From the NCBI GenBank assembly GCA_028710695.1, contig JAQTTP010000008.1, positions 1 to 30,833 on the forward strand: DNA of 30,833 nt, given 5' to 3'. A program made the translations under genes and the position numbers. Position 1 is the stretch's first letter, and every line of letters starts with the position of its first letter. Positions 4,400 through 27,722 of the stretch are shown piece by piece. The DNA is from Candidatus Iainarchaeum sp. (GTDB taxonomy: Archaea > Iainarchaeota > Iainarchaeia > Iainarchaeales > 0-14-0-20-30-16). Below the pieces are notes generated by a model. The model did not search any database and had not been told where the DNA came from. It was given only the letters and a program-made list of their open reading frames with translations.

Positions 4400-4405
4400 G
4401 TATAA

Positions 4406-8022: not shown

Positions 8023-8037
8023 GTAATTGTATTAAGC

Positions 8038-9931: not shown

Positions 9932-9938
9932 GCGCTTG

Positions 9939-10670: not shown

Positions 10671-10726
10671 TAGTTATTTATTTGTTTAAGTGATAATTTT
10701 ACTTATCAGCAGAGTTTGGGGATGTT

Positions 10727-11851
10727 ATGGTAAATAAAGTTTTTAGTTGGGCTGTTGTAGCCGTGTTAATTATAGTAATAGTTGTGTTGGTAGTTGTGTT
10801 TACTGGTGGGAATAGCGAAAAAGAAGTTATTAAGATTGGTGTTGTTGGGCCTTTGACTGGTGATATTGCTCAATATGGTTTATCTTACAACGCAGCAGTA
10901 GAGTTGGCGGCAGAAAAAGCAAATTATGAAATAGATGGAAAGAAAGTAGAATTTATAGTTGAAGATGGAAAATGTAATGGCACTGATGCAACAACAGCAT
11001 TTAACAAATTAATACATATTGATCAAGTAGATTTTATTATTGGTGGTTTTTGTAGTTCTGAGACCTTGGCTGGAATGCCAATTGCTGAGGCTTCAAAAAT
11101 TCTTACTTTGAGTCCAACATCAAGCAATCCAGGTTTAAAAAATGCTGGAGAATTTTTGGTTACTTTATATCCATTAGATGACTTTGAGGGCACTTTTGAT
11201 GCAGAATATGTGTATACTAAACTTGGTGCGAAAACAGTTGCCTTAATAGTAGAACAGAGCGATTGGCCCAAAGGAATTTCTGACGCATTCATAAAAAAAT
11301 ATGAAGAACTTGGGGGAAAAATTGTTGCAAAAGAATCCAATGAACAGAATGCCAAGGATTTAAAAATGCAATTGACTAAAATTGCAAGCCTAAACCCAGA
11401 TTTAATATATGTTGCACAATATACTGGCTCTTTAGCTAATTTACTTACTCAGAGGCAGGAACTAGGAATAACAATTCCTTTGATGGCACCGCAATTTATA
11501 GAAGATGGTCTAATAAAGACAGTTGGGTCTGCTGCGGAAGGAGTTTATGGATCTATAATTGATGTTCCAATAATGACTCAAGAAATGGAAATTGAAATAA
11601 AGGAACTTAGTGGGTTATCAATTCCAGAAAAAGTGTTTTCCTTGTTTGCCTATGATGCTTTTAACATTTTAAAGAAAACAATAGAAGACAAAAAAACACT
11701 TGATTCTACTGTGCTTAAAGATTATATGTTAACCCAAACTTATACAGGGTTAACTGGAAGCTACATTTTTGACAAGGACGGCGGAAACATTTCAGCAGCC
11801 TTTAAAGTAGAGAAAGTTGTGGATGGAATAAGAGTAACCCAACCACAATGA
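10727..11851 (+). CDS. ABC transporter substrate-binding protein 3 (LIV-binding-like)
   Basis: IKIGVVGPLTGDIAQYG..IDGKKVEFIVEDGKCNG..FNKLIHIDQVDFIIGGFCSSE. Colinear with SBP2 through to the end (..KVVDGIRVTQPQ versus ..KVVDGKLVAQSQ). Confidence 0.85.
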   Translation: MVNKVFSWAVVAVLIIVIVVLVVVFTGGNSEKEVIKIGVVGPLTGDIAQYGLSYNAAVELAAEKANYEIDGKKVEFIVEDGKCNGTDATTAFNKLIHIDQVDFIIGGFCSSETLAGMPIAEASKILTLSPTSSNPGLKNAGEFLVTLYPLDDFEGTFDAEYVYTKLGAKTVALIVEQSDWPKGISDAFIKKYEELGGKIVAKESNEQNAKDLKMQLTKIASLNPDLIYVAQYTGSLANLLTQRQELGITIPLMAPQFIEDGLIKTVGSAAEGVYGSIIDVPIMTQEMEIEIKELSGLSIPEKVFSLFAYDAFNILKKTIEDKKTLDSTVLKDYMLTQTYTGLTGSYIFDKDGGNISAAFKVEKVVDGIRVTQPQ

Positions 11852-11913
11852 TTTTTTTATTTCAACTCTTTAACCACAAACTTAAGTTTATATAACTATA
11901 TACCCTATTTTTT

Positions 11914-12798
11914 ATGGAAAATGGGGTAACTATGTTTAATTATCTTTTTACTGTGTTAGTGTTCTTCATTTACAACCTTTTAACTGCAGTAGCAGCTAAC
12001 TTGACTATCGGATATTTGGGTCTATTCAACTTGGGATTAATTGCATTTGTGGGAATAGGTGCTTACTCTTATGCCCTAGTAACAAAAGCGGGGCTGGGAT
12101 TCTGGCCTGCTGCCTTAGTGGCGATTGTGCTTCCTGGGCTTTTTGCTATTGCTTTGCAGCTTATAACAAAGAAGCTAAAAGGAGACTATTTTGGAATTGC
12201 TACTTTGGGGTTTACTTATGTTGTTTTTGCAATTCTAATCAATTCAGAGTTCTCAAATGGTGCTTTTGGGATTGCCGGTATTGCAAAACCCGAGATCTTT
12301 GGGTATGTGTTTAGAACCCCTGGGGAGTTCTTATTTTTCTCAACAATTGTGCTTGTAATTGTAATGCTAATAGTTTGGAAGCTTGTTAACTCGCGGTTCG
12401 GAAAACTGATGGAAGCTATAAGAGATGACGAAGTTTCTGTTAAGGTTCTTGGAAAAAATACAAACGCAGTAAAATACAAAGTTCTGTTCTTTGCAGGGGC
12501 AATCTGTGGATTAGCGGGTCTAATCTTTGCAAGTTTTATAACATTTATAGACCCTTATTCTTTCTTGCTCCAGCCTTTGATTGTAATTTTAACTATTGCT
12601 ATTCTTGGCGGGTTGGCATCTTTCTGGGGGCCTGTGCTTGGGGCAGCAATTATTACTTCTGTACCAGAGATTTTGAGATTTGTAGGGCTTCCATCTTCTA
12701 TTCTGGGGCCAGCAAGAATTCTGATTTATGCAATTATCTTAATCTTGGTTTTAATATATTGGCCTAAAGGCTTAATGGGCAGAATAAAGTATGATTAG
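11914..12798 (+). CDS. livM: branched-chain amino acid ABC transporter permease, LivM-type
   Basis: LTIGYLGLFNLGLIAFVGIGAYSYAL is the LivM signature region. About 8 TM segments. An alternative SD-led start exists at ATG 11932 (GGGGT upstream). Confidence 0.9.
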   Translation: MENGVTMFNYLFTVLVFFIYNLLTAVAANLTIGYLGLFNLGLIAFVGIGAYSYALVTKAGLGFWPAALVAIVLPGLFAIALQLITKKLKGDYFGIATLGFTYVVFAILINSEFSNGAFGIAGIAKPEIFGYVFRTPGEFLFFSTIVLVIVMLIVWKLVNSRFGKLMEAIRDDEVSVKVLGKNTNAVKYKVLFFAGAICGLAGLIFASFITFIDPYSFLLQPLIVILTIAILGGLASFWGPVLGAAIITSVPEILRFVGLPSSILGPARILIYAIILILVLIYWPKGLMGRIKYD

Positions 12799-13543
12799 TG
12801 GTGTTATGGAAAATATATTGCACACAAGAGGAGTAACAAAAGCATTTGGTGGAGTGAAAGCTCTGCATAATGTCTCCATTGATGTGCTAAGTGGGAAGAT
12901 AACTGCACTCATAGGCCCAAATGGAAGCGGGAAATCTACTCTTTTTGAAATTATATCTGGATTACAAAAGCAAGATCAAGGGAAGCTATATTTCAGAGAA
13001 AAAGAGTTTAGTAAGTTAAGCCCTTATAGAAGAGCAAATCAAGGGATTGCAAGGACTTTCCAGCAGGTCAGGTTGTTTAAGAATCTGGAACTGGCAGACC
13101 ATATAGAATTTGCGGTTGATAATGGGGATACAGGTTTTTTCAAGAATCTGTTTACAAGAACAAGACTTAGTGAGGATAAGCTTAGGGCAGCATTGGATAA
13201 GGTGGGCTTGGATAAGAGGGCAGATACTCAAGCACATAACTTGAGCTATGGCCAAAGAAAGCTTTTGGATTTGGCGGTTGCTTTGGCAAAGCCACATGAT
13301 CTTTTAATGTTGGATGAACCAGTAGCTGGAGTGACCCCTAAACTAAGAACCGAGATAAAACGGATCCTATTAGAAGAAAAGAAAGCCGGGAAGAGTATAT
13401 TGCTTATAGAGCACGATATGGATTTTGTTATGGGCATTGCAGATATAGTTTATGTATTGGGGCAAGGAGAAGTAATTGCAAAAGGAACTCCTAATCAAGT
13501 GAAGAAGAACAAAGCAGTGTTGGAAGCATATTTAGGTGAATAA
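12791..13543 (+). CDS. livG: ABC transporter ATP-binding protein, LivG-type
   Basis: Walker A GPNGSGKST, RTFQQVRLF, signature LSYGQRK, Walker B LLMLDEPVAG, and the LivG-type C-terminus ..VLEAYLGE. Overlaps the livM stop. Confidence 0.9.
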   Translation: MISGVMENILHTRGVTKAFGGVKALHNVSIDVLSGKITALIGPNGSGKSTLFEIISGLQKQDQGKLYFREKEFSKLSPYRRANQGIARTFQQVRLFKNLELADHIEFAVDNGDTGFFKNLFTRTRLSEDKLRAALDKVGLDKRADTQAHNLSYGQRKLLDLAVALAKPHDLLMLDEPVAGVTPKLRTEIKRILLEEKKAGKSILLIEHDMDFVMGIADIVYVLGQGEVIAKGTPNQVKKNKAVLEAYLGE

Positions 13544-14669
13544 TATGAATAAGTTATGGTCTTGGGGAATAGGGGCATTGGTAATTTTACTTGTTGTATT
13601 TTTGATTATTATCTCTTTTAGTCCTAAAGAAACAGGAATAATAAAAACGGGGGTAATTGCTCCTTTAACGGGAGTAAGGGCTGATGCAGGAGAATATATT
13701 TCTAATGCAATTGCTATTGCAAAGGAAGAACTTGATTCAAATAAAGACAAGAAATACAAACTAGAATTTGTCTTTGAGGATTCTCAATACAAACCCGATA
13801 TTGCAGTAACTGTGGCAAATAAATTACTTGATTATGACAATGTAAATTATATTATTGGTCCAAGCGGGTCTTCCGAAGTACTTGCCGTAGCCCCTATAAC
13901 AGAAGAACAGAAAAAAATACTTATGATTCCTGGTGCACAAACTCCAGAAATATCTGATGCTGGAGAATATATATTTAGGTTAATGCACAATAGTGCTCAG
14001 GAAGCACCAATATTTGCAAAATTTGTTGCAAAGAATATGAAAAGTGATACAATACATCTACTTGTAATTAACACCGCCTTTGGGTCAGGTTACCTAAAGT
14101 ATTTTGTTCCTGCTTTAGAAGCAGAGGGAAAAAAGGTAGGATTAATAGAATATTTTGAATCTTCAGAAATGGATTTTAAGCAGCCTCTTGCAAAAATTAA
14201 ATCTGAGAATCCAACAGATATTTTTCCAATGTCTACTGCTAAGCAATTTGGAACTATATTGGTTCAGGCAAAGGAGATTGATTTAAATGCTCAATTCTAT
14301 ATGGTTGGAACAGAAGGCCCAGATTTGGTTAAAATTGCTGGCTTTCTTGTCGAAGGGGTAAAATACCCTTATTCTTATGATGCTTTAAGTAGTGATGACA
14401 GTAAGGTAAAAGTTTTTTATAATAACTACTTAAACAAGTTTAAATCAGAGCCAGATACAATTGCAGCCAATACTTATGATGCAGTAATGTTACTAAGTAA
14501 CTGCTTCGAAAAATTTGGAGACAAAGTAGAAGAAGTAAAAACCTGCTTATACAATACAAAAAATTATTTTGGTGTAAGCGGAACATTTAGCATTGACTCG
14601 AAAGGGGACGCAGTAAAAAAAATAATAATTAAGACAGTTAAAGATGGAAAGTTTGTAAAATATGAGTGA
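13536..14669 (+). CDS. ABC transporter substrate-binding protein 4 (LIV-binding-like, divergent)
   Basis: IKTGVIAPLTGVRADAGE..KYKLEFVFEDSQYKPD..ANKLLDYDNVNYIIGPSGSSE. Overlaps the livG stop. The likely start is ATG 13545 after AGGTGA. Confidence 0.8.
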   Translation: MNNMNKLWSWGIGALVILLVVFLIIISFSPKETGIIKTGVIAPLTGVRADAGEYISNAIAIAKEELDSNKDKKYKLEFVFEDSQYKPDIAVTVANKLLDYDNVNYIIGPSGSSEVLAVAPITEEQKKILMIPGAQTPEISDAGEYIFRLMHNSAQEAPIFAKFVAKNMKSDTIHLLVINTAFGSGYLKYFVPALEAEGKKVGLIEYFESSEMDFKQPLAKIKSENPTDIFPMSTAKQFGTILVQAKEIDLNAQFYMVGTEGPDLVKIAGFLVEGVKYPYSYDALSSDDSKVKVFYNNYLNKFKSEPDTIAANTYDAVMLLSNCFEKFGDKVEEVKTCLYNTKNYFGVSGTFSIDSKGDAVKKIIIKTVKDGKFVKYE

Positions 14670-15396
14670 TTATATTATGGCTGTTGTTAAAGACCAAGGT
14701 AAGAAGTTTGGACTTGCAAAAAGTAAAGACTTTGATACTCTATACTTTAAGTATAACAAAAAGCTTTTGGGATTACTAGTTGATAAAATAAAAACAAAAA
14801 AACCATTAATTGCGGACTATGGTGGAGCGAACTCTATCTTAGGGAAAGAACTACTGAATTTATTGGATAAAAAAAAGATTGTGGCGAGTATTGATAATAT
14901 TGATTCTGATTCAAAAAAATTCATTAAAGTAAAAGGTATAAAAAACATAAAGGCGGATTTTCTGAAGCCTTTGGAAAAAGAAAAATATGACTTTGCAATG
15001 TCTAGGCATACTTTACACTATCTAAACAAAAAAGACCAAAGCAAATTTCTGGATAATGTTTATGCTAGCTTAAAGCCGAATGGATATTTCTTGTTGATTA
15101 TGTTTGTTAATTCAGAAGATGTACTTAGAAAAATAAAGATAAAGATTGAGGAATACCTAAAACATAAAAAGAACATTTATCGGCAGATGTTTAGTGATGA
15201 GAGTTTTTTGGATTTAGCAGAGAAGTCCAAATTTAAGGTGATAAAAACAAAGAAGGTTAATTATACAATTTCAATTAATGATTTTTATAAGAATAGATTT
15301 AATTTATCAAAAACACAAGTTAAAGAGATAGAAAAAACTATTTGCAAGAAACATAAAGAATCAATAGTGGCCGTATTGCTAAAGAAAGGTGAATAG
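14662..15396 (+). CDS. class I SAM-dependent methyltransferase-like protein
   Basis: Degenerate motif I IADYGGANSILG, then ASIDNIDSD, YDFAMSRHTLHYL and LKPNGYFLL. The ATG overlaps the SBP4 stop by 8 nt. Confidence 0.55.
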   Translation: MSDYIMAVVKDQGKKFGLAKSKDFDTLYFKYNKKLLGLLVDKIKTKKPLIADYGGANSILGKELLNLLDKKKIVASIDNIDSDSKKFIKVKGIKNIKADFLKPLEKEKYDFAMSRHTLHYLNKKDQSKFLDNVYASLKPNGYFLLIMFVNSEDVLRKIKIKIEEYLKHKKNIYRQMFSDESFLDLAEKSKFKVIKTKKVNYTISINDFYKNRFNLSKTQVKEIEKTICKKHKESIVAVLLKKGE

Positions 15397-15931
15397 AATG
15401 GTGATTAGGGAAATCGCCAAAGTATTGAGGTTAGATCCAAAATCCCGGTTAAAACGAAAAATAAAATCCCCCGAGGATGCAAAAATAGTTATTGAAACCT
15501 TAAAAGAAGAGATTGAAAAAAGAAAGAGAACTGTAGAATTTATGAAACAAAATGTTAAAATTGTTAAAGCAGGTAATAACACAAAAAGGTTTCAATTAGT
15601 TACCCCCGGGGGTAAAGTTGTCGCCAGTGTTAGTTGTAGCCACCTAAAGCAGGGGTTATGGGAAGGCCATGATTTATATGTTGGCTCTTATTATTTTTCT
15701 AAAGTTGAATATCGGCAGCTAGGTCTTGCAAAATTTTTGTTGGGCGCGTTAAGGGAATATTTAACAAAGAAAAATGCTACTGCCTTGCTTTTTAATGCAA
15801 AACCTGGCCTTGCAGAATTTTATGAGAAGTTGGGGGCAGTTAAAGATCAGAGTCGTAGTGAAGTGGTAGCATTTGGGCTAGTTCCAATGAAGTTTGTATT
15901 ATCGCCAGGAATAGAAGTAGGGGGGAAATAA
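15389..15931 (+). CDS. GNAT-family N-acetyltransferase with a basic helical N-terminal extension
   Basis: Motif A-like YRQLGLAKFLLGALREYL, followed by ..FNAKPGLAEFYEKLGA. The likely start is ATG 15398 after AAAGGTGA. The stop abuts the livF ATG. Confidence 0.6.
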   Translation: MNRMVIREIAKVLRLDPKSRLKRKIKSPEDAKIVIETLKEEIEKRKRTVEFMKQNVKIVKAGNNTKRFQLVTPGGKVVASVSCSHLKQGLWEGHDLYVGSYYFSKVEYRQLGLAKFLLGALREYLTKKNATALLFNAKPGLAEFYEKLGAVKDQSRSEVVAFGLVPMKFVLSPGIEVGGK

Positions 15932-16642
15932 ATGTTAAGTATACATAACCTTAATGCAGGATATGAAGAACTGAAGGTCCTGAAGAATGTTGATCTTGAG
16001 TTCCAAATGGGGGAATTTGTGTCTATAATTGGACCAAATGGAGCAGGAAAGTCCACTGTGTTGAAATCTATATTTAATATTGCTACCTTGGAAAAAGGGT
16101 CGAGCATAAAGTTCGAGGATAAAGAGCTTGTGGGTCTGAAGCCATATCAGCTGATATTTGAAGGTGTTGCATATGTTCCGCAAGGGAGAATAAACTTTGC
16201 AGATCTTACAGTAGAGGAAAACTTGCTTATTGGAAACTATTATCTAAAAGACAAAAAGGTTTCAGAACAGAATCTTGAAAAGGTATATAAATTCTTTCCA
16301 GAATTACACAAATTCAAGAAGAAGCTTTCGTATGCTTTGAGTGGCGGACAACAACAAATGCTTGCAATAGGGCGAGCAATGATGTTAGACCCTAAAGTGC
16401 TTTTGTTGGATGAGCCTTCTTTAGGATTAAGCCCCAAATTAATAAAAGAAACCTTTGCAAAAATAAAAGAAATTGCTGAATCAGGAGTACTAGTTTTAAT
16501 GGTTGAACAGAATGCAAAGAAAGCAATGGAATGTACAGACAAAACAGTTGTGCTTGAAGGTGGAGAATTGAAATTGTTTGGGAAAAGTAAAGACCTATTA
16601 AAAGATCCTAAATTAGGAAAAGTGTTTTTTGGCGGGGAATAA
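15932..16642 (+). CDS. livF: ABC transporter ATP-binding protein, LivF-type
   Basis: Walker A GPNGAGKST, AYVPQGRINFADLTVEENL, signature LSGGQQQ, Walker B LLLLDEPSLGL. Confidence 0.9.
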   Translation: MLSIHNLNAGYEELKVLKNVDLEFQMGEFVSIIGPNGAGKSTVLKSIFNIATLEKGSSIKFEDKELVGLKPYQLIFEGVAYVPQGRINFADLTVEENLLIGNYYLKDKKVSEQNLEKVYKFFPELHKFKKKLSYALSGGQQQMLAIGRAMMLDPKVLLLDEPSLGLSPKLIKETFAKIKEIAESGVLVLMVEQNAKKAMECTDKTVVLEGGELKLFGKSKDLLKDPKLGKVFFGGE

Positions 16643-16702: not shown

Positions 16703-16718
16703 GCTCCTAATTAGGAGC
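16703..16718. terminator. perfect 16-nt palindrome between convergent genes (bidirectional terminator candidate)
   Basis: GCTCCTAATTAGGAGC, preceded by an A-rich run. It contains the last codons and stop of the minus-strand esterase gene. Confidence 0.45.
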
Positions 16719-19391
16719 TGCGTAATTAGTTGTGCTTTCTACTATTCCATTACTAACAGTTAGAACTTGTGCTTCTCCATAAGAGTTTGAAGTAAGAACT
16801 AAAAGCTTTCCATCTGCCCTTATTTCTAAATCAGAAGCATCTAAACCATTTGTAGGAATATTGTATTCAGTTCCGCTGTAAACATCTAGGATTAAAGCAT
16901 CACTACCATCTAATAAAGCATAGCCAACTTCTAAATCAGCAAGAGAATACCCTTCTGGTATAGGGAAAGTATATTCATTTGTTTTTGCTAAGCTAGAGTT
17001 TAGTTCCCATACTTTGAATTCTGTGTTATTTGTAAGAAGAACAGCAACCTTATCAGTATGGTTGGTTACTAATCTTAATAGTTTCCAAGAACTATCTGGA
17101 AGAGCTATTGTTGTGCTTCCGATGTTCTGTGCTTTGTTGTTGAACTTTATTATAACTGCCTTGTTTTGTAAGTTTTGATATAGGATCAAAGGATTACTTC
17201 CAAGTAAGGACATGTAAACAGGGTATCTGTTAGTTGTTGAAAACAATGATTTAATTAGCTTGTTTCCACCATATGCATCTTGTCTATAAAGTCCTAAGCT
17301 TCCATTTGGGCCAGTCCATAATCCCCACCAAAGAGAAGGGATTTTTTGTTCAACATCTATTGAAAGGATATTATATGTCGGGTAATCAAAGAAACTTTGG
17401 TTTATTATTCCGTTTGAACCGTAGTCAAAACTTACAGACCATTTACCGCTATTTTTCCATACTACTCCGCTGTAATCTAATAAACTTGCTAAGAACTTTG
17501 CTTCCCATGAAGAAACAATTTTTACAATACATTCTGAACTCTCACAACCAAATTCACAAGTCTTTACTAAAATCTCATTCTTGTTGCTTTGGCAGCTTGA
17601 GTTGAATAGCCCTGGGTTTAAACAACCAAAGGAAGTTATCTCTTTGTAAACATTTCCGCTTTTACAATAATTTGCGCTTTCTGATGGTGCACCACAATCT
17701 AAATCTAGAGTACAGGAAGGCACAAAACAAGAACCCTCATAACAAGAGTTAGAGCAAGTTTCTTGTAAAACATTTTCTGTTTTTACAACACAATTTGCTA
17801 ATAGAGTTCCTGGATTTTCACAAGTTGGAATATCTTTTGTCTTTAAAACATTATTTTCTGAGCAAAAGTTGCTTGATGTCCAGCTCTCAGTTCCACAATC
17901 AGTATTTGAGAAACATTTTGGAACAACACAAGCACCAGCTTCACAGCCGTACTCACAATCTTCTACTAAGGTATCAACAAGATTATTTGAACAAGAGGAA
18001 GTCCATTTTCCGGCATCATTACAGGAAAACATTTGCTTTTTCTTGTAAACATCATTGTTTTGACAATAATTTTCTCCAACAAGAGCATCTGCCCCACAAT
18101 CTGTGTTTAGGAAGCAAGAAATTTTCTTACACTCTCCGCTAAAACACTCTTGGGTTGGAGAACAACTTTCCATTAAAATATTTCCTGTGTTTTTTGAACA
18201 AGATGAACTTGTTGTTCCAGGATTATTACATGTAAATGTTTCTTTTTGTTTGAATACATTATTTTCAGAACAGAAATTATTACCTATAAATGAATCTACT
18301 CCACAGTCAGTATTAGCAAAACAAGCTATATCTTTACATTGTGAAGATTCACATAATTGACTAGAAGAACACTGCTGAACTAAGTTAGTAACTGTTTCTT
18401 TTTTACAGTATGATGCAGTTGTTCCTGGATTAACACAGGTATTTACTAAGGTGTCTTTCTTCAAAGCATTAGTTGAACAATAATTTGCTGAATCTGTGTT
18501 TGTTCCACATTCTAGATTTGTAGAACAGGCAATCTGCTGTGGAAGTGGTGTAGAATTATTAATAAAGAAAGTCCAAATTGACTCATTCTTTGTTTTGTCA
18601 TAGTTGTGGCCCATTCCAGTTAAAGAAATTAATTGATTTGGGTGGCCTTTGTTTGTTAATTCTGTTTGTAATTTTTGATCCCATGAATAAGGAACTACTG
18701 AATCATCAGTAGAGTGTATCAAAAGTCCGGGAACTTTTAATGCTGCATTTGTTTTTGCATTAGTTGCAGCTATTGGGAAATAAAACATATTATAATAGTT
18801 TACTAATCCCCCTGAATGCCCTGCAAAAGCAGTAACCTTGCTTGGCAAACACATTGAGGCATAATAACTAAATAAAGCACCATATGAGTGGCCCATAAAG
18901 TAAACGTGATCTGCAGATACTTTGTAATCTGTACTTAATTTTGTTAGGATGTTGCTAACAAAATCTAAATCTTGGGAGTCACATTTGTTTGATGCTTGGA
19001 TATGACCTATGTCCCATCGAATATATTTTTGGTTTCCTGGGAAACCAGCTACATCATATTCGGGAATGTTTACCCATAAAAACGAAAAATTCTTTGGGGG
19101 TAAGTTCTTTAGTGAATCAGGGAAAACAGCAATAAAGCCCTTGCTATCAGCTAAGCCTTTTATATTGTAATAATCACTTGCTGCAAAAGTGGCATCGCTT
19201 CCCATTCCGTGGAACATATAAACCAGCGGATAGGTTTTTGTTGCGTCAAATCCTGTTGGCAAATAAACCAAATATGTTCTTTCAATACCCCTTATTGTTG
19301 TTTTCTGGGTTAAGAGACTTCCTGCAAAAGTAAAAGATGCAAGAATTAAAATTAAAAGAATTGTAATAACTATCTTTGAAAAGTTGTTCAC
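16707..19391 (-). CDS. secreted alpha/beta-hydrolase (PHB-depolymerase/feruloyl-esterase-like) fused to five Cys-rich modules and an unknown C-terminal domain
   Basis: GTG start with GGGGTGA upstream. Signal peptide. RTYLVYLP..YPLVYMFHGMG, nucleophile elbow GHSYG, HSTDDSVVP and GMGHNY (Ser/Asp/His order). Five ~65-aa repeats follow, then ~270 aa with no recognised motif. Confidence 0.7.
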   Translation of the reverse strand: MNNFSKIVITILLILILASFTFAGSLLTQKTTIRGIERTYLVYLPTGFDATKTYPLVYMFHGMGSDATFAASDYYNIKGLADSKGFIAVFPDSLKNLPPKNFSFLWVNIPEYDVAGFPGNQKYIRWDIGHIQASNKCDSQDLDFVSNILTKLSTDYKVSADHVYFMGHSYGALFSYYASMCLPSKVTAFAGHSGGLVNYYNMFYFPIAATNAKTNAALKVPGLLIHSTDDSVVPYSWDQKLQTELTNKGHPNQLISLTGMGHNYDKTKNESIWTFFINNSTPLPQQIACSTNLECGTNTDSANYCSTNALKKDTLVNTCVNPGTTASYCKKETVTNLVQQCSSSQLCESSQCKDIACFANTDCGVDSFIGNNFCSENNVFKQKETFTCNNPGTTSSSCSKNTGNILMESCSPTQECFSGECKKISCFLNTDCGADALVGENYCQNNDVYKKKQMFSCNDAGKWTSSCSNNLVDTLVEDCEYGCEAGACVVPKCFSNTDCGTESWTSSNFCSENNVLKTKDIPTCENPGTLLANCVVKTENVLQETCSNSCYEGSCFVPSCTLDLDCGAPSESANYCKSGNVYKEITSFGCLNPGLFNSSCQSNKNEILVKTCEFGCESSECIVKIVSSWEAKFLASLLDYSGVVWKNSGKWSVSFDYGSNGIINQSFFDYPTYNILSIDVEQKIPSLWWGLWTGPNGSLGLYRQDAYGGNKLIKSLFSTTNRYPVYMSLLGSNPLILYQNLQNKAVIIKFNNKAQNIGSTTIALPDSSWKLLRLVTNHTDKVAVLLTNNTEFKVWELNSSLAKTNEYTFPIPEGYSLADLEVGYALLDGSDALILDVYSGTEYNIPTNGLDASDLEIRADGKLLVLTSNSYGEAQVLTVSNGIVESTTNYAAPN
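17529..18527 (-). repeat. five tandem Cys-rich coding modules (aa 289-621 of the esterase)
   Basis: Each unit reads C-x3-(D/E)CG-x~10-C-x~13-C-x-NPG-x5-C-x~12-C-x3-5-C-x3-C, for example ACFANTDCGVDSFIGNNFCSENNVFKQKETFTCNNPGTTSSSCSKNTGNILMESCSPTQECFSGEC. Confidence 0.75.
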
Positions 19392-19480: not shown

Positions 19481-20584
19481 TTACTTTGCTGTTTTACAAT
19501 TTAACTGTGGCCCTTTTGTGAGTAATGGAACTCCCAAAGGTGTTTCTTGACAACCTAACTCTAATTCTGTTGTGCAATTTTCTTTTTGTGGCAAAACAAA
19601 CACTCTAAATGGGAATTGGGTTGCCATTGCAGCACCCCCAATGGGTATCGGGGTTTCTGGAATAATACAACTATATGCCAGTCCATCTATTGCATACCAT
19701 TGATTTCCTATTTGTAATGCTGTATAATAATGGCCCGCAGAATATGCAAAGAAATCTTCTATAGTTGTTAGTCCCATTCCAGTCATTTTTGTTTTTATCT
19801 TTTCAATATTTGGAACTTTTTTTGTAATTCCGTTTTCGTCAGTTTCAATTGAAAAATATTCTAATGGCCAATTGCCGGCCAAGTTTGCAACAATAAGCTT
19901 ATCTCTTGGTATTCCTAACCTTGTGAGTAAAGCATATGTTACAAATCCACCTTGTATGCAAGCAGCAAGGCAGATCTTACCAGTATCTTTGAATAGTTCT
20001 GCCTGGGTGCTCAAGTGATCTATGTTTTGTGAACTTGACTCTACATATTGCATTGATACTGGGCAATCTCCAGTTTCGGCATTGTTTTTATACCAATCAA
20101 ATAAGTTCTTCACAATAGCCCACATTTCTTGGTCCGTTAATTTTTTGTTAAAATTATGCCCATAATTTTTGTCAATGCTTTTTAGTAATGTATCAATTGT
20201 ATCGTTTTGTGTGTAAATATCTTCCAAAACATTTTCTGGTTTTTTTGAATCTTTAAAAGAAACGTTTTTTGTCAAGAATTTGGTGAATGGCTCTTTGTTT
20301 ATTTCAGAAATTTTTTTAAATATGCCTTCAGTTTTGTTAAGAATATAGTAATAGCTTCCATTCGTTAATTTTATTTTTTTGTATTGCACTTTTCCAATCC
20401 TGTCTGATTCTAATTCCAAATATTCTTGAGCATCCTCAAATTTAATGTCATTCAAATCTATTGTGTTTTTTATATTGGGATCTTTTTGTGTATTTGTGTC
20501 TTCTGTACTAGTTATGTCTGAAGTACAGCCACTAAACAAGAAAATTACGAAAATGAGTAATAAAAACAAAAATATTTTTTTCAT
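19481..20584 (-). CDS. putative lipoprotein with a transglutaminase-like (Cys-His-Asp) core
   Basis: Lipobox-like FLFSGC|TSD. GKICLAACIQGGFVTYALLTRLGIPRDKLIV resembles G.C..FA..f.al.Ra.GIPAR.V. AGHYYTALQIGNQWYAIDG resembles H.W.EV...g.W...D. Confidence 0.45.
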   Translation of the reverse strand: MKKIFLFLLLIFVIFLFSGCTSDITSTEDTNTQKDPNIKNTIDLNDIKFEDAQEYLELESDRIGKVQYKKIKLTNGSYYYILNKTEGIFKKISEINKEPFTKFLTKNVSFKDSKKPENVLEDIYTQNDTIDTLLKSIDKNYGHNFNKKLTDQEMWAIVKNLFDWYKNNAETGDCPVSMQYVESSSQNIDHLSTQAELFKDTGKICLAACIQGGFVTYALLTRLGIPRDKLIVANLAGNWPLEYFSIETDENGITKKVPNIEKIKTKMTGMGLTTIEDFFAYSAGHYYTALQIGNQWYAIDGLAYSCIIPETPIPIGGAAMATQFPFRVFVLPQKENCTTELELGCQETPLGVPLLTKGPQLNCKTAK

Positions 20585-21986: not shown

Positions 21987-22463
21987 ATGCCATTTCCTGC
22001 ATTACATGTTTTATTTAATATTGGTGCTTTCTATCCTTTCAGAAAATATTTTGGAAAGTACTGGCTTGTATTTGCTGGACTTTCTGGATTAGTAATGGAT
22101 TTAGATTTTGCATTACAATTTATTCTTGGGCCGGATTCATTTTTTGCACATGGGTATTTCTTCCATACAATTGGGTTTGTGCTGTGTTTATTAGCAATTT
22201 CTTTGGTTGTGTTTTTGAAAAACAAAGAATATGGAAAATATGGACTTATTATTGCAGGCGGAGCATTGTTACACTTACTTTTAGATTATATCCTTGGGGG
22301 CGGAAAATATTATTTGGCATTATTCTACCCCTTCTATTCTGGCGGATTCCACTTACACCTTTTGATGTCTTTTAAAGAAAACGACATTTTTGGAATTCTG
22401 GATGCAATAGCAATATTTATTTCTTTGGGTGTTTATTTTATAATCTTAAAAACTAGGAAATAG
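21987..22463 (+). CDS. YdjM/DUF457-like membrane-bound metal-dependent hydrolase
   Basis: 158 aa with 4-5 TM segments. GLVMDLDFA....FFAHGYFFHTIG resembles the ..PD.D....HRG.THS signature. SD TGGGGT upstream. Ends 7 nt before the next gene. Confidence 0.5.
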   Translation: MPFPALHVLFNIGAFYPFRKYFGKYWLVFAGLSGLVMDLDFALQFILGPDSFFAHGYFFHTIGFVLCLLAISLVVFLKNKEYGKYGLIIAGGALLHLLLDYILGGGKYYLALFYPFYSGGFHLHLLMSFKENDIFGILDAIAIFISLGVYFIILKTRK

Positions 22464-22470
22464 GGGTTGC

Positions 22471-24669
22471 ATGAACAAATATTTTATTGTAATTATTTTT
22501 TGTGTTCTTTTTGCTGCTTGCTCATACTCTTATACCTGGTCATTAACCCAAGTTGAGGCAATTGGAACTGGGACTGCAGGGTATCCTTATCTATTAAAAA
22601 TGGATGTAACGTCTGATGGTATTCCAAATCTAATTTATAGAAATAATTCAGGTTCTAATTTAAGACACGCATACTATTCGAGTGGAAGTTGGACTATAGC
22701 GAATATTGGGGCTTATAACCCACAATATATTTGGGCCTGTATGGACCCAAGTGACAATTTGCATGTTTCTTATTATGACCTTACAAGTGCAAACAGGGAT
22801 ATGAGGTATCTAAAATGGACTGATGCAACATCTTCGTGGCAAGCAAGCCCAACCATTGTGGATCAAAGCCACACAGTTATTGGACAATACAGCTCAATAG
22901 CCTCAGATAGCAGTGGAAACTTAGGGCTGGCTTATTTGGATTATTACAGTACCTCCGCCGTAGATGACTTGTATTATGCTTACTATAATGGCTCTTGGGC
23001 CACAACTGGAATTGATGTAAATGCCTCTGAAAAGGATGGATATAACACGGCAATTGTTTTTGATAGCTCTGGGTTTGCCCATATAGTTTATTGTGATAAC
23101 ACAAATTATGATTTGAAATATGCAACAAATAGTTCTGGATCTTGGGTGATATCAAGGGTTGACACAAGCGATGTTTGTTGGGGTAATGGTGTGGGTTTAG
23201 CAATAGATACTTCCGATAATCTTTATGCTTGTTATTGGGATAGGGGGGGCAATTTTACTCAAGACCTGAAGTTTGCATATTATAATGGAAGTTGGAGTAC
23301 CGAGACTGCAGCATCTACTGACGTTGTTGGAAAATACTGTTCAATAGACGTAAACTCAAGTGGCGTACCGCACATATCACATTTTAACGACACTGATAAC
23401 ACTTTAGAAATGGCATACAAAGTTGAATCTACTTGGTATACAGAGGTAGTAGACACTAATTCAAATTCTGGAATATATGGTACTAGTCTTAAAATAGATG
23501 CAGATAATAATGTGCACATTGGATATTTAATAAACCCTGGAACAAGTGGATTTGTGGGGTATGCTTTTGCTGCGGGACCTGTAGTGCCTGTAGCAAGCTA
23601 TTTTGATGTAAATTATACCACTCCTACTTCTGGCAACTATAATACTGAGGTCCAAGATGTTGAATTTTATAGCACTACTTCCGATCCGTCTACTGGCCTA
23701 AATCTAAAAATTTATGTTTCTAGCAGCCAAGGCGGATTTGAAACAGAATTAGTGGATTTAAATGTATTAGATTATGCGAATATATCTGGAATGTCTTGTG
23801 TAGATTCGAACTTCCAAGATTCAACAAGATGTGTTTATGATTTGAATGTGGTGGGCGTAACTGATGGAAATTATTATATTGACTTAAACTTGTATAATAC
23901 AACAACATCTAGTACTGATTCAAGTACGGGGACTTTAAGAATTGATCATACCGCACCAACTATTTCATCCGTAAGTATGAATTCTGAGAGTCAACTAACC
24001 GGAAGTAATTATGCTTTAACTGCAACAATATCTGACGCGGGATCTGGGCTTGACGGGAACGAAATTTATATTTGTTGGAGCCCAAGTTCAAGTGAAGTAG
24101 CATGTACTTCTGGAAGTTGGGATTGTCATTTAGGAGATATGGTAAACACAGCGGGAAATAGTTATAGCGCGACTATTTCAGCAAGTGTAAAAGATACATC
24201 CGGAGTTTGGAATTGTAAAATTTATGCAACAGATGTTTTGGGATTATCAAATAGTGGAACAGATACTGAAACAATGCAAACTACTACTGGAATTACTGTG
24301 GACGCTGCGTCAGCAATCTATTCTGGAAATCCCAACACTACTGAGAATGATATTCTAACAGATCAGGCCCACAATTATTTAGTGGTTACACATAATGGAA
24401 ATTCATCAATAAATGTTGATGTTAACGGAAACCCGTTTACATCTGGGGGAAATATTATTACTCCAAATCTTCAAAAATTTAAAAATAGTGATGATTACGG
24501 CTCTGCAGTATCTATGACTGGTTCATCTCAAAGACTTATAACTACTTGGGGGTCAGGGAGCTACCCTACAAGTGATAATTTTAGTATGTGGTTTTGGCTA
24601 GATATTCCTGTTGGGGCATATCACGGAGATTATAGTAGTTCTATAGTTTTTACAAGTGAGGGGTCTTAG
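22471..24669 (+). CDS. large surface protein A: lipobox-like signal, 7-repeat beta-propeller, Ig-like modules, C-terminal domain shared with protein B
   Basis: MNKYFIVIIFCVLFAAC. Seven ~45-aa repeats (D.SG..H+.Y.D....L.YA...GSW). IDHTAPTISSV and SDAGSGLDG are Ig-like module starts. The last 126 aa are paralogous to the end of B. Confidence 0.75.
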   Translation: MNKYFIVIIFCVLFAACSYSYTWSLTQVEAIGTGTAGYPYLLKMDVTSDGIPNLIYRNNSGSNLRHAYYSSGSWTIANIGAYNPQYIWACMDPSDNLHVSYYDLTSANRDMRYLKWTDATSSWQASPTIVDQSHTVIGQYSSIASDSSGNLGLAYLDYYSTSAVDDLYYAYYNGSWATTGIDVNASEKDGYNTAIVFDSSGFAHIVYCDNTNYDLKYATNSSGSWVISRVDTSDVCWGNGVGLAIDTSDNLYACYWDRGGNFTQDLKFAYYNGSWSTETAASTDVVGKYCSIDVNSSGVPHISHFNDTDNTLEMAYKVESTWYTEVVDTNSNSGIYGTSLKIDADNNVHIGYLINPGTSGFVGYAFAAGPVVPVASYFDVNYTTPTSGNYNTEVQDVEFYSTTSDPSTGLNLKIYVSSSQGGFETELVDLNVLDYANISGMSCVDSNFQDSTRCVYDLNVVGVTDGNYYIDLNLYNTTTSSTDSSTGTLRIDHTAPTISSVSMNSESQLTGSNYALTATISDAGSGLDGNEIYICWSPSSSEVACTSGSWDCHLGDMVNTAGNSYSATISASVKDTSGVWNCKIYATDVLGLSNSGTDTETMQTTTGITVDAASAIYSGNPNTTENDILTDQAHNYLVVTHNGNSSINVDVNGNPFTSGGNIITPNLQKFKNSDDYGSAVSMTGSSQRLITTWGSGSYPTSDNFSMWFWLDIPVGAYHGDYSSSIVFTSEGS

Positions 24670-24762
24670 TGATTTTTTGCTTGTGAAGATGCAAGGGTTT
24701 ATAAATTATGTTTGTGTTTTATATATACAAATCTTATCACATTTGGATTCAAGGGAGATTGA

Positions 24763-25728
24763 TTGTTTATGATTTCAAATAAAGGCTTTTTGAGAATAGG
24801 AAAATTCTTTTTAATATTTATTTTCGCGGGGCTGTTTATTTTTTTGTTAAATTTTTCTAGTTCTGCTGATGTATCTGTAACTGCAACAGTTGGTAATGCA
24901 AGCCCAATATTGCAAGATGTGAATATTTGTTCAACTAGTTGTGAAAAATATAAAGCACTTGCCCCTGGGACAGCATTCACAGTTCAAGTTATAGCAGGGG
25001 ACCCAAATGGATTAAGTGATATAAATTGGGGTGCAACAGAAATAGAAATCTATACTGTGGCAGATACAAACGCAAGTTCAGCAAGTTGGGATCATGTGAT
25101 TTTGTCAATGGCAGATGGAACCTTGACTCAAACAGATTCTGCAGATGGTTGTACTGCGGAAATAGCTATTACGGATACAAACTGTTTTACTATAGAAGCA
25201 GGGGATTGGACAGTAAAATTTTTAGAGGCTGGGGCAGAAATTTATGTTAAAATTTATGATAAATATGCAGTTCCGGCATCAAGTGATTTAGAAATTGCTT
25301 ATGTTGCGGATACTCTTGGAATCTTAGTTTCTGGAACAACAGGTATGTCATTAGATACGACTGCCGGGACTTTTTCAGGGAGCGCAAATACAACAAATAA
25401 TGCCTTTGACTCTGGACAAACAGTTAATGCTTATATAATTGCTACACATAGCGGAAACCAGAATTTAGAATTAAAAATGGATGCAAGTAGTTTAACTAGT
25501 GGTGGTAACACAATTGCTGATGGCAATATAAGTTGGTATTTAAGTAATGATGCAGTAAGTTCAACACCATTTACTGGTGCAGCAGATACTATCCATACTG
25601 CTTGGGGACGAGGAACAAGTCCAACATCAAGTACAGATAATGTTTATACTTGGTTAGATATTCCTATAAGCACACCTACCGGGGATTATACGGGAACTTT
25701 CTCAGTAACTACTGAAGCATCATCATAA
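24763..25728 (+). CDS. secreted protein B: paralog of the C-terminal half of A (Ig-like module + shared C-terminal domain)
   Basis: The likely start is ATG 24769, with GGGAGA ~10 nt upstream. Sec-type signal ending ..FSSSA|DVSVTATV. The C-terminus ..HTAWGRGTSPTSSTDNVYTWLDIPISTPTGDYTGTFSVTTE aligns with ..TTWGSGSYPTSDNFSMWFWLDIPVGAYHGDYSSSIVFTSE in A. Confidence 0.75.
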   Translation: MFMISNKGFLRIGKFFLIFIFAGLFIFLLNFSSSADVSVTATVGNASPILQDVNICSTSCEKYKALAPGTAFTVQVIAGDPNGLSDINWGATEIEIYTVADTNASSASWDHVILSMADGTLTQTDSADGCTAEIAITDTNCFTIEAGDWTVKFLEAGAEIYVKIYDKYAVPASSDLEIAYVADTLGILVSGTTGMSLDTTAGTFSGSANTTNNAFDSGQTVNAYIIATHSGNQNLELKMDASSLTSGGNTIADGNISWYLSNDAVSSTPFTGAADTIHTAWGRGTSPTSSTDNVYTWLDIPISTPTGDYTGTFSVTTEASS

Positions 25729-25755
25729 AAACTTTATCTTCCTTTATTTATTTGA

Positions 25756-26412
25756 GTGAAAGGTATGAATTGTATGAAAGGAAGTATTTATTTTCTGATT
25801 AGTGTCTTTATCTTATCCTCTTTATCCCTTAGTATTTCCTGCCTTGCTCTTGCGGGCGGGTACGATTTAAATGCAATAAAAGGCCAAGAATATTACTTTG
25901 ATTTTACAGTATACAATAATGATGCGGATTCAGCAACTGTTTGTGATCCTGGAATGTATTCTATGTCTTTAAGTGTTGTGGATGGAGATATTGACGACTT
26001 ATTTGACTATAAAATTTCTGAAAATGATTTGGTTTTAAATGACACAGACACAAAAAAGGTAATGGTTTCTATTACCCCCCTTGTAGACTCCGGACAGTAT
26101 GAAATTTTAGTGACTGTTAAAAGGGCTGATGTTGGTTTGGGGCAGGGTGGAACAAAAATATTTAACTCTACTGTGGGCAAGATAAAGGTAAATTTAGGCG
26201 GAGAAACAAAGAAAACATCATATGATGAGGTTCCTGAATGGTATGCCTATGAACAACAGCAAGAAGATCTAAATGCGGATCAAAATGCCCCTTTAGCAAA
26301 TAATCCTGAAAACAATAGCTCAAGTGATGGTAATACTTTGTTATATGTATTAGTAATAATTATGGCGGCAGTAATACTGTTTATGGCATTTATTTTGTAC
26401 AAAAGACGGTAA
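25756..26412 (+). CDS. surface protein C: signal peptide, single beta-sandwich-like ectodomain, acidic/Gln linker, C-terminal TM anchor
   Basis: Candidate starts are GTG 25756, ATG 25765 and ATG 25774. Ectodomain YYFDFTVYNND...VMVSITPLVDSGQYEILVTVK (CARDB/NEW3-like pattern). C-terminus LLYVLVIIMAAVILFMAFILYKRR. Confidence 0.7.
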   Translation: MKGMNCMKGSIYFLISVFILSSLSLSISCLALAGGYDLNAIKGQEYYFDFTVYNNDADSATVCDPGMYSMSLSVVDGDIDDLFDYKISENDLVLNDTDTKKVMVSITPLVDSGQYEILVTVKRADVGLGQGGTKIFNSTVGKIKVNLGGETKKTSYDEVPEWYAYEQQQEDLNADQNAPLANNPENNSSSDGNTLLYVLVIIMAAVILFMAFILYKRR

Positions 26413-26444
26413 CCTTTATTAATCACAAAAAAACAATTGTATAA

Positions 26445-27722
26445 ATGTCTAGAAATTGTTTATTTTTTATAGTAGTTTTATTTTTAACATTAGTGATTTC
26501 TCCTTTTGTGTATTCAGAACTTGTAACAGTAACTGCACAAGTTGTAAGTTCAAACGCAGAACCATCAGTGCCTTTGCTTATTGATGAAGGAGATAAAACA
26601 AGCTATGGGACAGTTACATTAGATTGGCTGGAATCTACTGATGACGAGAATGACTCAATTTTATATTTCTTAAGGGCCGGAACTACTTCTGGAGGAAACA
26701 GTACTTTGGATGTAAATACTCCAGATATAAACTATTCCTTTTCCTTAGCCACGAATGGAACTTATTATTGGTCTGTGAAGGCCTGTGATAATAATGATTC
26801 TACTTGGGGACATTGTAGTGACTGGAGTATAGAAGACACGTTTGTTATGAATTATACTGCCCCTGTTGATGATGAAGATCTTGGCGGCGGAGGGGGCTCA
26901 ACAACAAAAACAGAGCCAATTGACACCAACGAGCTAGAAGTAAATAGCTGTGAGATTTGTAGCAAGGGACAAAAATGTGATGGAAAATATATTTATTCTG
27001 ATGGCTTAGTGTGCTGTTTTAATGGTTGTAGTGTGAGTTCCCAAATCACTAATGAACCAATAGGCGAAAACTATGATGAAGTTATAATTGATAACTTTGT
27101 CCTTGATATGAAACAGGTTTATAATAAAGAAGACATGACCTTTGAAGATAATGAGATTGGGCTGAGGGATTATGTTCTAGATACAAATAAAATAAAAATA
27201 ACTTTGAAGGTAAAAACAACAAAGCTTCTTTCAAACTTTAAATTTGAGGGATATAGAATCCATTTTGATTACTACCTTAGCTCGCCAGATGAAACTATAG
27301 AAAAACCATTTATTCTTTTAGAATATGATCCTGCACTTATTTCTAACGCAAAATTAATACAAAGCGAGCAGGATTTCTTTGTTGTAAATGATTCCACAGT
27401 AATTGGAATAATACCAGAAAAATTAACTAGTCAGGACTATTTATTTTCTTTTTATGTTGATTTGAAAGAAAAGCCAAATGATAATTTGTGGACAAATTTG
27501 AAGAAGCCACTAGTTTACATAAAGAACAAGGATCTTTGTGCAAGTGTAAAGTGTGATGATTTTGATGCCTGTACAAAAGATATTTGTGAAGAGGGGAAAT
27601 GTGTTCACATAAACACTTGTGAGCAAAAGAAACCATCTGCAAGCAGCTATGTTTTATATTATATAATTGGTGCTCTGCTTTTAATGATCTTGGTGGCAGT
27701 CTACCTATTGAAGAAACATTAA
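26445..27722 (+). CDS. surface protein D: signal peptide, FN3-like domain, Gly5 linker, Cys-rich modules, C-terminal TM anchor
   Basis: The signal ends ..FVYS|ELVTVTAQV. FN3-like TVTLDWLES..YYWSVKACDN..CSDWS. A GGGGGS linker. Cys-rich segments CEICSKGQKCDG..CCFNGC and CASVKCDDFDACTKDICEEGKCVHINTC. C-terminus YVLYYIIGALLLMILVAVYLLKKH. Confidence 0.7.
   Translation: MSRNCLFFIVVLFLTLVISPFVYSELVTVTAQVVSSNAEPSVPLLIDEGDKTSYGTVTLDWLESTDDENDSILYFLRAGTTSGGNSTLDVNTPDINYSFSLATNGTYYWSVKACDNNDSTWGHCSDWSIEDTFVMNYTAPVDDEDLGGGGGSTTKTEPIDTNELEVNSCEICSKGQKCDGKYIYSDGLVCCFNGCSVSSQITNEPIGENYDEVIIDNFVLDMKQVYNKEDMTFEDNEIGLRDYVLDTNKIKITLKVKTTKLLSNFKFEGYRIHFDYYLSSPDETIEKPFILLEYDPALISNAKLIQSEQDFFVVNDSTVIGIIPEKLTSQDYLFSFYVDLKEKPNDNLWTNLKKPLVYIKNKDLCASVKCDDFDACTKDICEEGKCVHINTCEQKKPSASSYVLYYIIGALLLMILVAVYLLKKH

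Follow-up and report, generated by a model that had tools for sequence, protein, structure and literature searches.

A conserved cassette of secreted and membrane-anchored proteins in DPANN archaea and bacteria of the Candidate Phyla Radiation: a candidate strand-complementation surface fibre or anchored adhesin cluster

Organization of the locus

The window analyzed here is a stretch of 30,833 nucleotides (nt) (contig JAQTTP010000008.1, assembly GCA_028710695.1) from a metagenome-assembled genome deposited as 'Candidatus ainarchaeum sp.', a member of the Iainarchaeota in the DPANN kingdom Nanobdellati. It carries five co-directional genes, coding for a YdjM-like membrane protein (H) and four secreted or membrane-anchored proteins (A, B, C and D), the last four of which are the subject of this study. 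The deposited records PHH82_04010, PHH82_04015 and PHH82_04020 hold identical proteins, all of them annotated as hypothetical. Depending on the start codons used, the spacers measure 7 nt (H-A), 93-99 nt (A-B), 27-45 nt (B-C) and 32 nt (C-D), with alternative starts also open at TTG 24763 for B and at 25756 for C. This layout agrees with a first-pass annotation of the window, which had described five co-directional genes with short spacers. The features, in coordinates of the window, are:

21987-22463, forward strand: H, open reading frame (ORF) of 158 amino acids (aa), YdjM-family polytopic membrane protein
22471-24669, forward strand: A, ORF of 732 aa, candidate tip adhesin
22561-23568, forward strand: head of A, seven repeats of ~48 aa (residues ~31-366) that are predicted to form a beta-propeller of seven blades and BNR/SBBP type
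23887-24666, forward strand: C-terminal region of A homologous to B, residues 473-732, comprising an Ig-like N-domain and the C-terminal domain (CTD; ~590-732, ending WFWLDIPVGAYHGDYSSSIVFTSEGS)
24670-24768, forward strand: A-B spacer, as read from the sequence, of putative function
24769-25728, forward strand: B, 319 aa, NCBI start ATG 24769, candidate shaft subunit
24868-24906, forward strand: orphan N-terminal strand and linker of B, DVSVTATVGNASP, residues 34-46, proposed donor strand
25294-25725, forward strand: CTD of B, residues 176-319, signature beta-sandwich common to A, proposed strand acceptor or docking module
25765-26412, forward strand: C, 215 aa, NCBI start ATG 25765, putative membrane-anchored accessory protein
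26445-27722, forward strand: D, 425 aa, membrane-anchored base candidate

The A-B spacer has a T6 run immediately past the stop codon of A, TATA-like boxes TTTATAAA and TTTATATATA, and a GGGAG 11 nt before the ATG of B at 24769; TATA-like boxes are present in each of the spacers from A to D. Given the T-run and the boxes, B may be under its own promoter, with termination possible after A. A single five-gene transcript is therefore not established, and the 'five-gene operon' of the first-pass annotation is unsupported. A scan with sigma-70 promoter and terminator models gave no excess over shuffled sequences, this model being uninformative for an archaeon. The GC content of the cassette is that of the surrounding DNA, with no island signal.

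Conservation of the gene order

To place the locus in context we collected contigs encoding homologs of B or C, which are referred to here by L-numbers. The order A-like, B-like (one or two copies), C-like and D-like is met again in no fewer than eight other divergent lineages whose flanks are unrelated. The identity of B to the window protein is 61% in a close relative and drops to about 20-25% in the most remote loci. Close relatives carrying the cassette are represented by L001, L002 and L005. Beyond these it occurs in L012, from an uncultured archaeon, in L006, an archaeal chromosome where it adjoins genes for a histone, L21e and Rpb4, and in L007/L008, L023 and L024. A distinct version, which we term Type II (L004, L018, L021 and L022), has two B paralogs, a D of 1100-1500 aa and an extra anchored protein of ~170 aa. 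A partial cassette is found in L009 from Candidatus Kerfeldbacteria, a bacterium of the Candidate Phyla Radiation (CPR), and C comes after B on the short contigs L014, L016 and L017. A locus search with alignment A1 recovered only two genome and eight metagenome loci. In the window the cassette is preceded by a class II tRNA synthetase of the Asn/Asp type and followed, on the opposite strand, by fibrillarin and Nop5.

Across these loci the A-like proteins keep the B-like C-terminus and swap their heads, which may be a propeller, Laminin_G_3, Flg_new_2 or DUF2341. Swapped heads on a constant C-terminus correspond to the two-part design of pilus tip adhesins, and by this head-swapping the A-like proteins stand out as the determinant of specificity. 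A, B, C and D thus form a conserved functional cassette of secreted or anchored proteins without a known family. Both the synteny in related genomes that the first-pass annotation proposed as a check and its composite of a binding head, a small paralogous subunit and anchored partners are borne out for A-D across the cassettes.

H has a different history. It exceeds the Pfam gathering score for YdjM (PF04307; 34.8 bits against 29 bits, E 1.4e-8, profile positions 27-141 of 176), so that its identification as a YdjM-like membrane protein, a predicted hydrolase, stands. However, apart from the window, the sole locus with H beside the cassette is L005, a close relative whose entire neighbourhood is syntenic. 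It is missing from this place in L004, L006, L007, L009, L012, L018, L021, L022 and L024, and in all eight other lineages with an upstream flank on the contig. With co-occurrence limited to the window and one close relative, H is a neighbour and no component of the cassette, and the idea of a 'dedicated' hydrolase is dropped.

Several loci offer further observations on the variation of the cassette. In L024 the D-like protein (8531-9760) consists of an orphan strand, a B-type N-domain, a PKD domain and a transmembrane (TM) helix, in effect a B subunit in which an anchor replaces the CTD; the gene directly upstream of this cassette (276-1580) codes for a subtilisin-like peptidase of family S8 that has a TM helix at its C-terminus. 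The CPR cassette of L009 contains an S26 signal peptidase gene (5012-5533, reverse strand), which recalls sipW in tapA-sipW-tasA, and a 740-aa protein that resembles a C-like protein fused to a B-like one, with a second internal signal-like helix. In L022, immediately in front of an intact C gene, a 203-aa ORF (8389-9000) opens with the signal peptide of the C protein (MQKDKIIR...LAIAL, the same as in the C of L004), followed by a basic endonuclease-like part; judged by its sequence, it looks as if a homing endonuclease had inserted into the 5' end of C and the leader had been duplicated. Upstream of the cassette in L012 (13-1905) lies a protein of at least 630 aa with many short repeats of the type 'FYGKLDVN / DVNLNFRDLNARS', ending in YadA/collagen-like 'AxGxxSxA' repeats, a further candidate for a fibrous surface protein.

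In the Type II loci (L004 1-16879, L018 1-16903, L021 1-16383 and L022 1-17338) the cassette is embedded in a long series of small uncharacterized ORFs with a common orientation, which includes homing endonucleases (NUMOD3, LAGLIDADG) and a TnpB, with 1700-aa ORFs downstream. Scans of their flanks with PHROGs and Pfam found homing endonucleases and TnpB and no virion genes (no capsid, portal or terminase). These arrays may represent a large mobile element or a virus of an ultra-small archaeon.

Domain architecture of the cassette proteins

Protein A combines a signal peptide, the seven-repeat head, an Ig-like module, a B-like N-domain and the CTD. In the repeat alignment the head resolves into seven units of ~48 aa with the consensus D.SGN.H..Y.D...DL.YAY..GSW....D. 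More than 160 surface proteins of bacteria and archaea have homology to the N-terminal 40-50% of A, the similarity covering only the head part, and several of these homologs match the BNR_4, BNR_2 or SBBP propeller models, mostly near threshold; A itself and its 61%-identical homolog have no match in Pfam, propeller models included. The aligned repeats and the homologs that touch propeller models are compatible with the seven-bladed head predicted by the first-pass annotation. At the other end, B aligns with the last residues of A in BLASTP (35% identity over 149 aa, E 4e-22), and the B profile covers residues 473-731 of A (hmmsearch, 6e-29), that is, its last Ig-like module and CTD. B is hence a paralog of just this portion of A, as had been proposed. 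The 1071-aa protein of L004 has 37% identity to A over 391 aa and a different head.

Two other properties attributed to A fare less well. The Cys of its lipobox-like signal (LFAAC) is not conserved in the 61%-identical A of L005, which reads ...ITFSYSYNW; lipidation of A is therefore unsupported, and we discard its classification as a lipoprotein. The N-x-S/T sequons noted earlier as abundant are indeed frequent in the cassette proteins (1.6-1.9 per 100 aa, most of the other window proteins having 0-0.5), but they show no excess over the N/S/T-rich composition (14 observed in A against 13.7 expected).

Protein B begins with a Sec-type signal (residues 1-33), followed by the orphan strand, an Ig-like N-domain with two conserved Cys pairs and the CTD. 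A word-indexed search with B alone retrieves 10 proteins, and an exhaustive profile search with the B family 176 cluster representatives at E <= 1e-3. The resulting B/CTD family is of two kinds, short (270-350 aa) and long (450-1300 aa), and of 151 members 147 have the CTD as their very last part. None of the 45 members scanned is covered by a Pfam family and the named records are all 'hypothetical'; the family has no prior description, no Pfam model and no annotation. In B-family proteins the signal closes with an AxA-like site, and the conserved strand comes right after it (SSSA before DVS, AMA before ADVS); as read from the sequences their hydrophobic segment is predicted to be removed, not retained. 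The first-pass annotation had likewise recognized no class III signal or archaellin pattern, and a type IV pilin or archaellin is rejected. Three family members, P0236, P0240 and P0257 (561-609 aa), have the reversed order, with the orphan strand and B-like module N-terminal and either a LamG-like domain or 'GNGLFVAV' propeller repeats C-terminal; each would be a shaft-type subunit bearing its own head.

Protein C has a signal, one beta-sandwich with a conserved Cys pair, an acidic/N-rich linker, a C-terminal TM helix and a KRR tail. Its family comprises 14 proteins without a Pfam match, and the C-like genes lie directly behind the B-like genes in all cases, with no cassette lacking one. D has a signal (residues 1-24), an orphan strand of its own with a linker (ELVTVTAQVV and SSNAEPSVP, ~26517-26573), an FN3-like module, Cys-rich segments, a beta-rich domain, a C-terminal TM helix (~27636-27707) and a KKH tail. 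The assignment of its N-terminal module as FN3-like comes from weak or indirect matches, and FN3-like modules are common to D and the 1502-aa protein of L004 (E 1e-23). Of the earlier description of C and D, the signal peptides, single C-terminal TM helices and KRR/KKH tails are thus confirmed, and the FN3-like ectodomain of D is backed at the level of those matches.

Pfam and NCBIfam assign no family to A-D, and searches of A, B and D against PDB chains returned nothing meaningful. No catalytic motif or recognized family is present in A-D, in agreement with the first reading of the sequence, and the searches that it had suggested against WxL, SCPU, DUF4402, TasA and CARDB yielded no membership by sequence. 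For CARDB a match was obtained at E 0.1, below threshold, and was rejected.

Fold of the C-terminal domain

An AlphaFold2 (AF2) model of full-length B shows two beta-sandwich domains with moderate confidence (predicted local distance difference test, pLDDT, 68). Foldseek searches with it gave only generic two-Ig matches of the Fab and T-cell receptor type, and for this reason the CTD was modelled alone. With a multiple alignment of 108 sequences the CTD model reaches a pLDDT of 95.2 and a predicted TM-score (pTM) of 0.85. Its Foldseek neighbours in the PDB fall into two groups, subunits of donor-strand-exchange fibres and N-terminal sandwiches of the GH123 type.

About 30 of the 50 best neighbours belong to the first group. 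Among them are CsuA/B 6fq0 (probability 1.00, TM-score 0.46-0.49), the Csu pilus 7zl4, the pilin domain of CsuE, TLP-1b 9ikk, cannulae 9h8b/7uii, FimG/F/A/I, CupE, CS17, CfaB, Caf1, PapA, HdaB and SafA, as well as the TasA fibre 8aur (E 0.17) and the archaeal thread 7pnb (E 0.53, TM-score 0.3), both weak fold neighbours; sequence searches against PDB chains gave no match to the thread. GH123 N-domains match the fold with probabilities of 0.92-1.00, scoring equally with the pilin subunits; at the sequence level, weak matches to Pfam Glyco_hydro_123_N_2, below the Pfam threshold, were seen in 3 of 45 family members. A search of a viral structure library with the CTD gave nothing comparable (best E 0.2). 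Despite the weak scores, the apparent enrichment of neighbours of the modelled CTD for polymerizing subunits is striking.

An orphan strand behind the signal peptide

Essentially all short B-like proteins have a conserved strand, VxVTATVGNxxP, directly behind the signal peptide. In the B of the window an AxA-type site is followed by DVSVTATVG-NASP, with alternating small hydrophobic residues and an NxxP linker. This strand is among the few segments conserved across the whole B/CTD family and is nearly invariant in the B alignment. Most long A-like members lack it: their mature N-termini have no such strand, and the profile match in them starts at the NxxP that follows the final strand of the Ig domain before it. 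In A this homologous position is occupied by STGTLRIDHTAP (...STGTLRID-HTAP...). Since A places the last strand of a preceding Ig domain there, the N-terminus of B looks like the final strand of a missing domain. In the AF2 monomer of B the orphan strand is unstructured, with pLDDT below 50 as against 80-88 for the adjoining domain. The donor strand of TLP-1 was likewise reported to be left disordered by AF2 in the monomer (PMC11494351).

Of the seven lineages in which N-termini of B-like and D-like proteins were compared, six have a strand that matches it at the N-terminus of their TM-anchored D-like proteins. Examples are ELVTVTAQVV-SSNAEP in the window, VITITAHV in L005, VTITAQII in L002 and LITIVVTV-NNVAP in L012, along with EMNATVL-NSPP in L006, GKATVG-P in L007, LTGTVEV in L023 and EGTADVG-NSPP in L024. 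The mean local alignment score of N-termini is 24.4 for B with D, against 12.3 for B with A and 13.7 for B with C, and the same-locus pairing of B with D was equalled or beaten by 14 of 720 permutations over six lineages.

A model of strand donation

Starting from what is directly observed, namely the conservation of the cassette, the domain architectures, the orphan-strand pattern and the fold neighbours of the CTD, we infer strand insertion, polymerization, roles for C and D and a ligand for the head. In the reading that we favour, with a probability of roughly 0.5, A-D build a Sec-exported, membrane-anchored adhesive fibre or short stalk by donation of beta-strands between subunits, with A as tip, B as shaft, D as base and C as accessory, and with assembly proceeding without a periplasmic chaperone or usher. 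A would be the distal tip, a variable binding head on a B-like module that accepts a strand and has none to donate. B would be the repeating subunit: cleavage by signal peptidase would expose the orphan strand (VSVTATVG, then NxxP) as the new N-terminus, which would complete or augment the CTD of the preceding A or B. D, with a strand and no CTD, would plug into the last B and end the chain, its TM helix tying the structure to the membrane. C, a TM-tethered single beta-sandwich, could act as an assembly chaperone or platform that holds or primes subunits, or as a second anchor, in a role likened to that of TapA for TasA or of PapD-like chaperones for pilins. A separate promoter for B and the T-run after A would fit a higher expression of the shaft subunit. 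The first-pass annotation's proposal of a pilus, fibre or anchored adhesin complex accordingly keeps the conserved cassette and gains the fibre-subunit neighbours of the CTD and the strand of B and D, and loses the dedicated hydrolase and the lipobox.

A number of results weigh against strand donation in a fibre. All Foldseek matches of the CTD are weak (best E 2.7e-3, none at or below 1e-3; TM-scores 0.4-0.5), and about 10 of its top 25 neighbours come from GH123 glycosidases, where they represent the N-terminal beta-sandwich. This non-fibre domain also gave the family profile its sole PDB match at the level of sequence (E 2e-4 to 5l7v/5l7r). On account of these GH123 matches, the modelled CTD may be a complete, self-sufficient sandwich. 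No match to Fimbrial (PF00419) or SCPU (PF05229) was found for A-D at E <= 1 or for 45 family members at E <= 0.01, and there is no membership by sequence in DUF4402, TasA/M73 or WxL. In addition, an Ig domain lies between the proposed donor strand and the acceptor, giving a two-domain subunit unlike classical pilins. The D-like proteins of the Type II cassettes (L004, L018, L021 and L022) are without a VxVTA strand, and there the small anchored protein (E) might take over this role of D. Finally, a mutual-information scan with average product correction of 90 B-like sequences gave no partner columns for the N-terminal strand, in an underpowered analysis whose top pairs were subfamily signatures. 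Our confidence stays at about one half because the fold evidence is weak and points in part to a non-fibre domain, and because the coevolution scan was uninformative.

Comparison with known systems

Chaperone-usher pili, in particular the archaic Csu pilus, provide the closest structural parallel. Apart from supplying the best neighbours of the CTD (6fq0, 7zl4, 6fjy), their two-domain tip CsuE joins a binding domain to a pilin-like domain without a donor strand, much as the A-like proteins have no orphan strand, and their shaft subunits have an N-terminal strand of alternating small hydrophobic residues (V.V.A.V) as in the short B-like proteins, for which a donor role is putative. A terminal subunit ends the chain, so that a logic of tip, shaft and terminator is common to both. 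Unlike these pili, the cassette has a subunit with an extra Ig-like domain between strand and CTD and a TM-anchored base in the absence of an outer membrane, and its hosts are DPANN archaea and CPR bacteria. No gene for a PapD-like chaperone or an usher was detected by Pfam among the ORFs of the window or in the related loci.

Donor-strand fibres that assemble free of chaperones have been described in archaea, namely the threads (Saci_0406/0405; 10.1101/2022.04.26.489512), the cannulae of Pyrodictium (CanA) and the bundling pili of Pyrobaculum. Together with TasA/TapA/SipW of Bacillus and the freshwater TLP-1 fibrils, these resemble the proposed fibre in that the subunit is processed by Sec and type I signal peptidase such that the new N-terminus is the donor strand, and in that a paralog lacking one of the two functions serves as cap or nucleator (Saci_0405, TapA). 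Structures from this group (9ikk, 9h8b, 7uii, 8aur, 7pnb) are all among the CTD neighbours, weakly so (E 0.02-0.5). They differ in having no sequence relationship to the cassette proteins, and no large modular tip adhesin or TM-anchored base is encoded alongside them. With regard to TasA/SipW in particular, no Peptidase_M73 match was found, and there is no signal peptidase in the window, the S26 peptidase being restricted to the L009 cassette.

In terms of gene-cluster logic, a nearly identical arrangement is seen in the WxL/Csc clusters of Lactobacillales and Bacillales, with one small and one large WxL protein, a WxLIP (DUF916-DUF3324-TM) and an LPxTG protein. In these, the small and the large protein have a strictly C-terminal shared domain, the heads are variable and host-binding, the TM partner has two Ig domains, and AF2 predicts that the partner inserts a hairpin into the WxL domain (PMC10599100, PMC9772566). 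The cassette differs in that Pfam WxL (PF13731), DUF916 and DUF3324 are unmatched, the spacing of the motifs described for WxL is 68/106 residues as against 39 between SWYL and WLDIP in B, and WxL binds peptidoglycan, which archaea do not have, with no polymerization proposed for it. As the DUF916 and DUF3324 models of the partner are unmatched, the likeness is one of analogy and not of membership. The only similarity of the CTD to a solved structure by sequence is to the N-terminal beta-sandwich of GH123/NgaCa (Glyco_hydro_123_N_2); there, however, the domain is part of a globular enzyme and has no assembly role, and the cassette has no glycosidase domain.

Alternative explanations

The WxL likeness suggests the best of the alternatives, one that we consider unlikely but worth taking seriously, in which the products form a non-polymeric membrane-anchored adhesin complex. 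Here A and B would dock side by side through their CTDs onto C and/or D, possibly by insertion of a strand or hairpin, and present the head of A outward in a stoichiometric complex without a fibre. The composition of the cluster matches, with a small protein, a large one with the shared domain at its C-terminus and variable N-terminal binding domains, and an Ig-like TM partner. The extreme C-terminal position of the CTD in the 147 of 151 members, the presence of C in every cassette and the resemblance of the CTD to a complete domain (pLDDT 95, GH123_N similarity) also agree with it, as does the CPR version of C, which with two beta-sandwich domains and a TM helix (314 aa) is built like WxLIP. 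Nevertheless, WxL, DUF916 and DUF3324 are unmatched (B and C at E <= 1; 45 members at E <= 0.01), the dual WxL motif and its spacing are absent, with B having its SWYL and WLDIP 39 residues apart, and archaea have no peptidoglycan to serve a WxL-type anchor. Moreover, such a complex leaves unexplained why the orphan strand is present in B and D but not in A, and why the CTD neighbours are enriched in polymerizing subunits. Both this complex and the fibre use beta-strand complementation, and they differ in stoichiometry.

It is considerably less probable that A-D are independent surface proteins, such as envelope or S-layer-associated glycoproteins or lectin-like binders, that are located together through shared regulation or descent. 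Their lack of a recognized family or catalytic motif would be compatible with this, and Ig-like, FN3-like and CARDB-like sandwiches are generic parts of archaeal envelopes. NxxP linkers preceded by a strand are also common between tandem Ig domains, such that domain shuffling could have left the orphan strand behind, and the TATA-like boxes in each spacer permit separate transcription. Yet the A-B-C-D order is kept at about 20% identity of B, with unrelated flanks and swapped heads, which is hard to account for without a physical or functional link, and the orphan strand is one of the best-conserved segments of the family. Least of all do we expect an attachment module of mobile elements or viruses (virion- or conjugation-related fibres) that was captured by the chromosome in the window, since, for all the Type II arrays of co-directional small ORFs with homing endonucleases, TnpB and giant ORFs, the integrase and P-loop protein just downstream in L007 and the patchy distribution common to DPANN and CPR, the flanks in the window, L005, L001, L006 and L012 are core genes (Asn/Asp-tRNA synthetase, fibrillarin, Nop5, histone, L21e, Rpb4), the Type II flank scans found no capsid, portal or terminase, the CTD lacks structural neighbours among viral proteins and the GC content does not deviate from that of the adjacent DNA.

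Other genes of the window

Elsewhere in the window, 3533-16642 holds the genes of an ABC transporter for branched-chain amino acids of the Liv type, interleaved with genes for a methyltransferase and a GNAT protein. Besides two permeases and two ATPases it comprises four paralogous Peripla_BP_6 binding proteins (4406-5536, 8163-9290, 10727-11851 and 13536-14669), a large investment in uptake for a DPANN genome. The first-pass annotation had seen the cassette as a candidate for host attachment in a likely episymbiont; this putative role would suit a member of the DPANN archaea, but the same stretch of DNA codes for this large transporter. On the reverse strand, 16707-19391 encodes an 894-aa secreted protein with an N-terminal alpha/beta-hydrolase domain (esterase/carboxylesterase-like) and 42 cysteines, the other ~600 aa being without a family. 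This is followed on the same strand (19481-20584) by a 367-aa protein with a canonical lipobox, LFSGC, whose sub-threshold match to NCBIfam BamK (E 8.6e-6, 25.7 bits against a cutoff of 120 bits) is most likely driven by the lipoprotein leader.

Implications

Beyond type IV pili, little is known of the means by which DPANN archaea and CPR bacteria hold on to surfaces or to partner cells. The cassette is best filed as a strand-complementation surface fibre or anchored adhesin cluster built from undescribed families; it gives testable roles for its subunits, namely tip, shaft, base and accessory, and the family profile lends itself directly to the annotation of about 176 orphan protein clusters. 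We further put forward, tentatively and as something short of an even bet, that it represents a membrane-anchored donor-strand pilus of a new class, independent of chaperone and usher, with exchangeable tip adhesins and a two-domain subunit, present in DPANN and CPR and sometimes on mobile elements, that serves as an attachment organelle of ultra-small cells. Should the model of strand donation hold, the cassette would provide the fourth donor-strand fibre of archaea and the first to combine a modular tip adhesin with a TM-anchored base, and would connect the fibres of monoderm archaea conceptually with chaperone-usher pili and WxL clusters.

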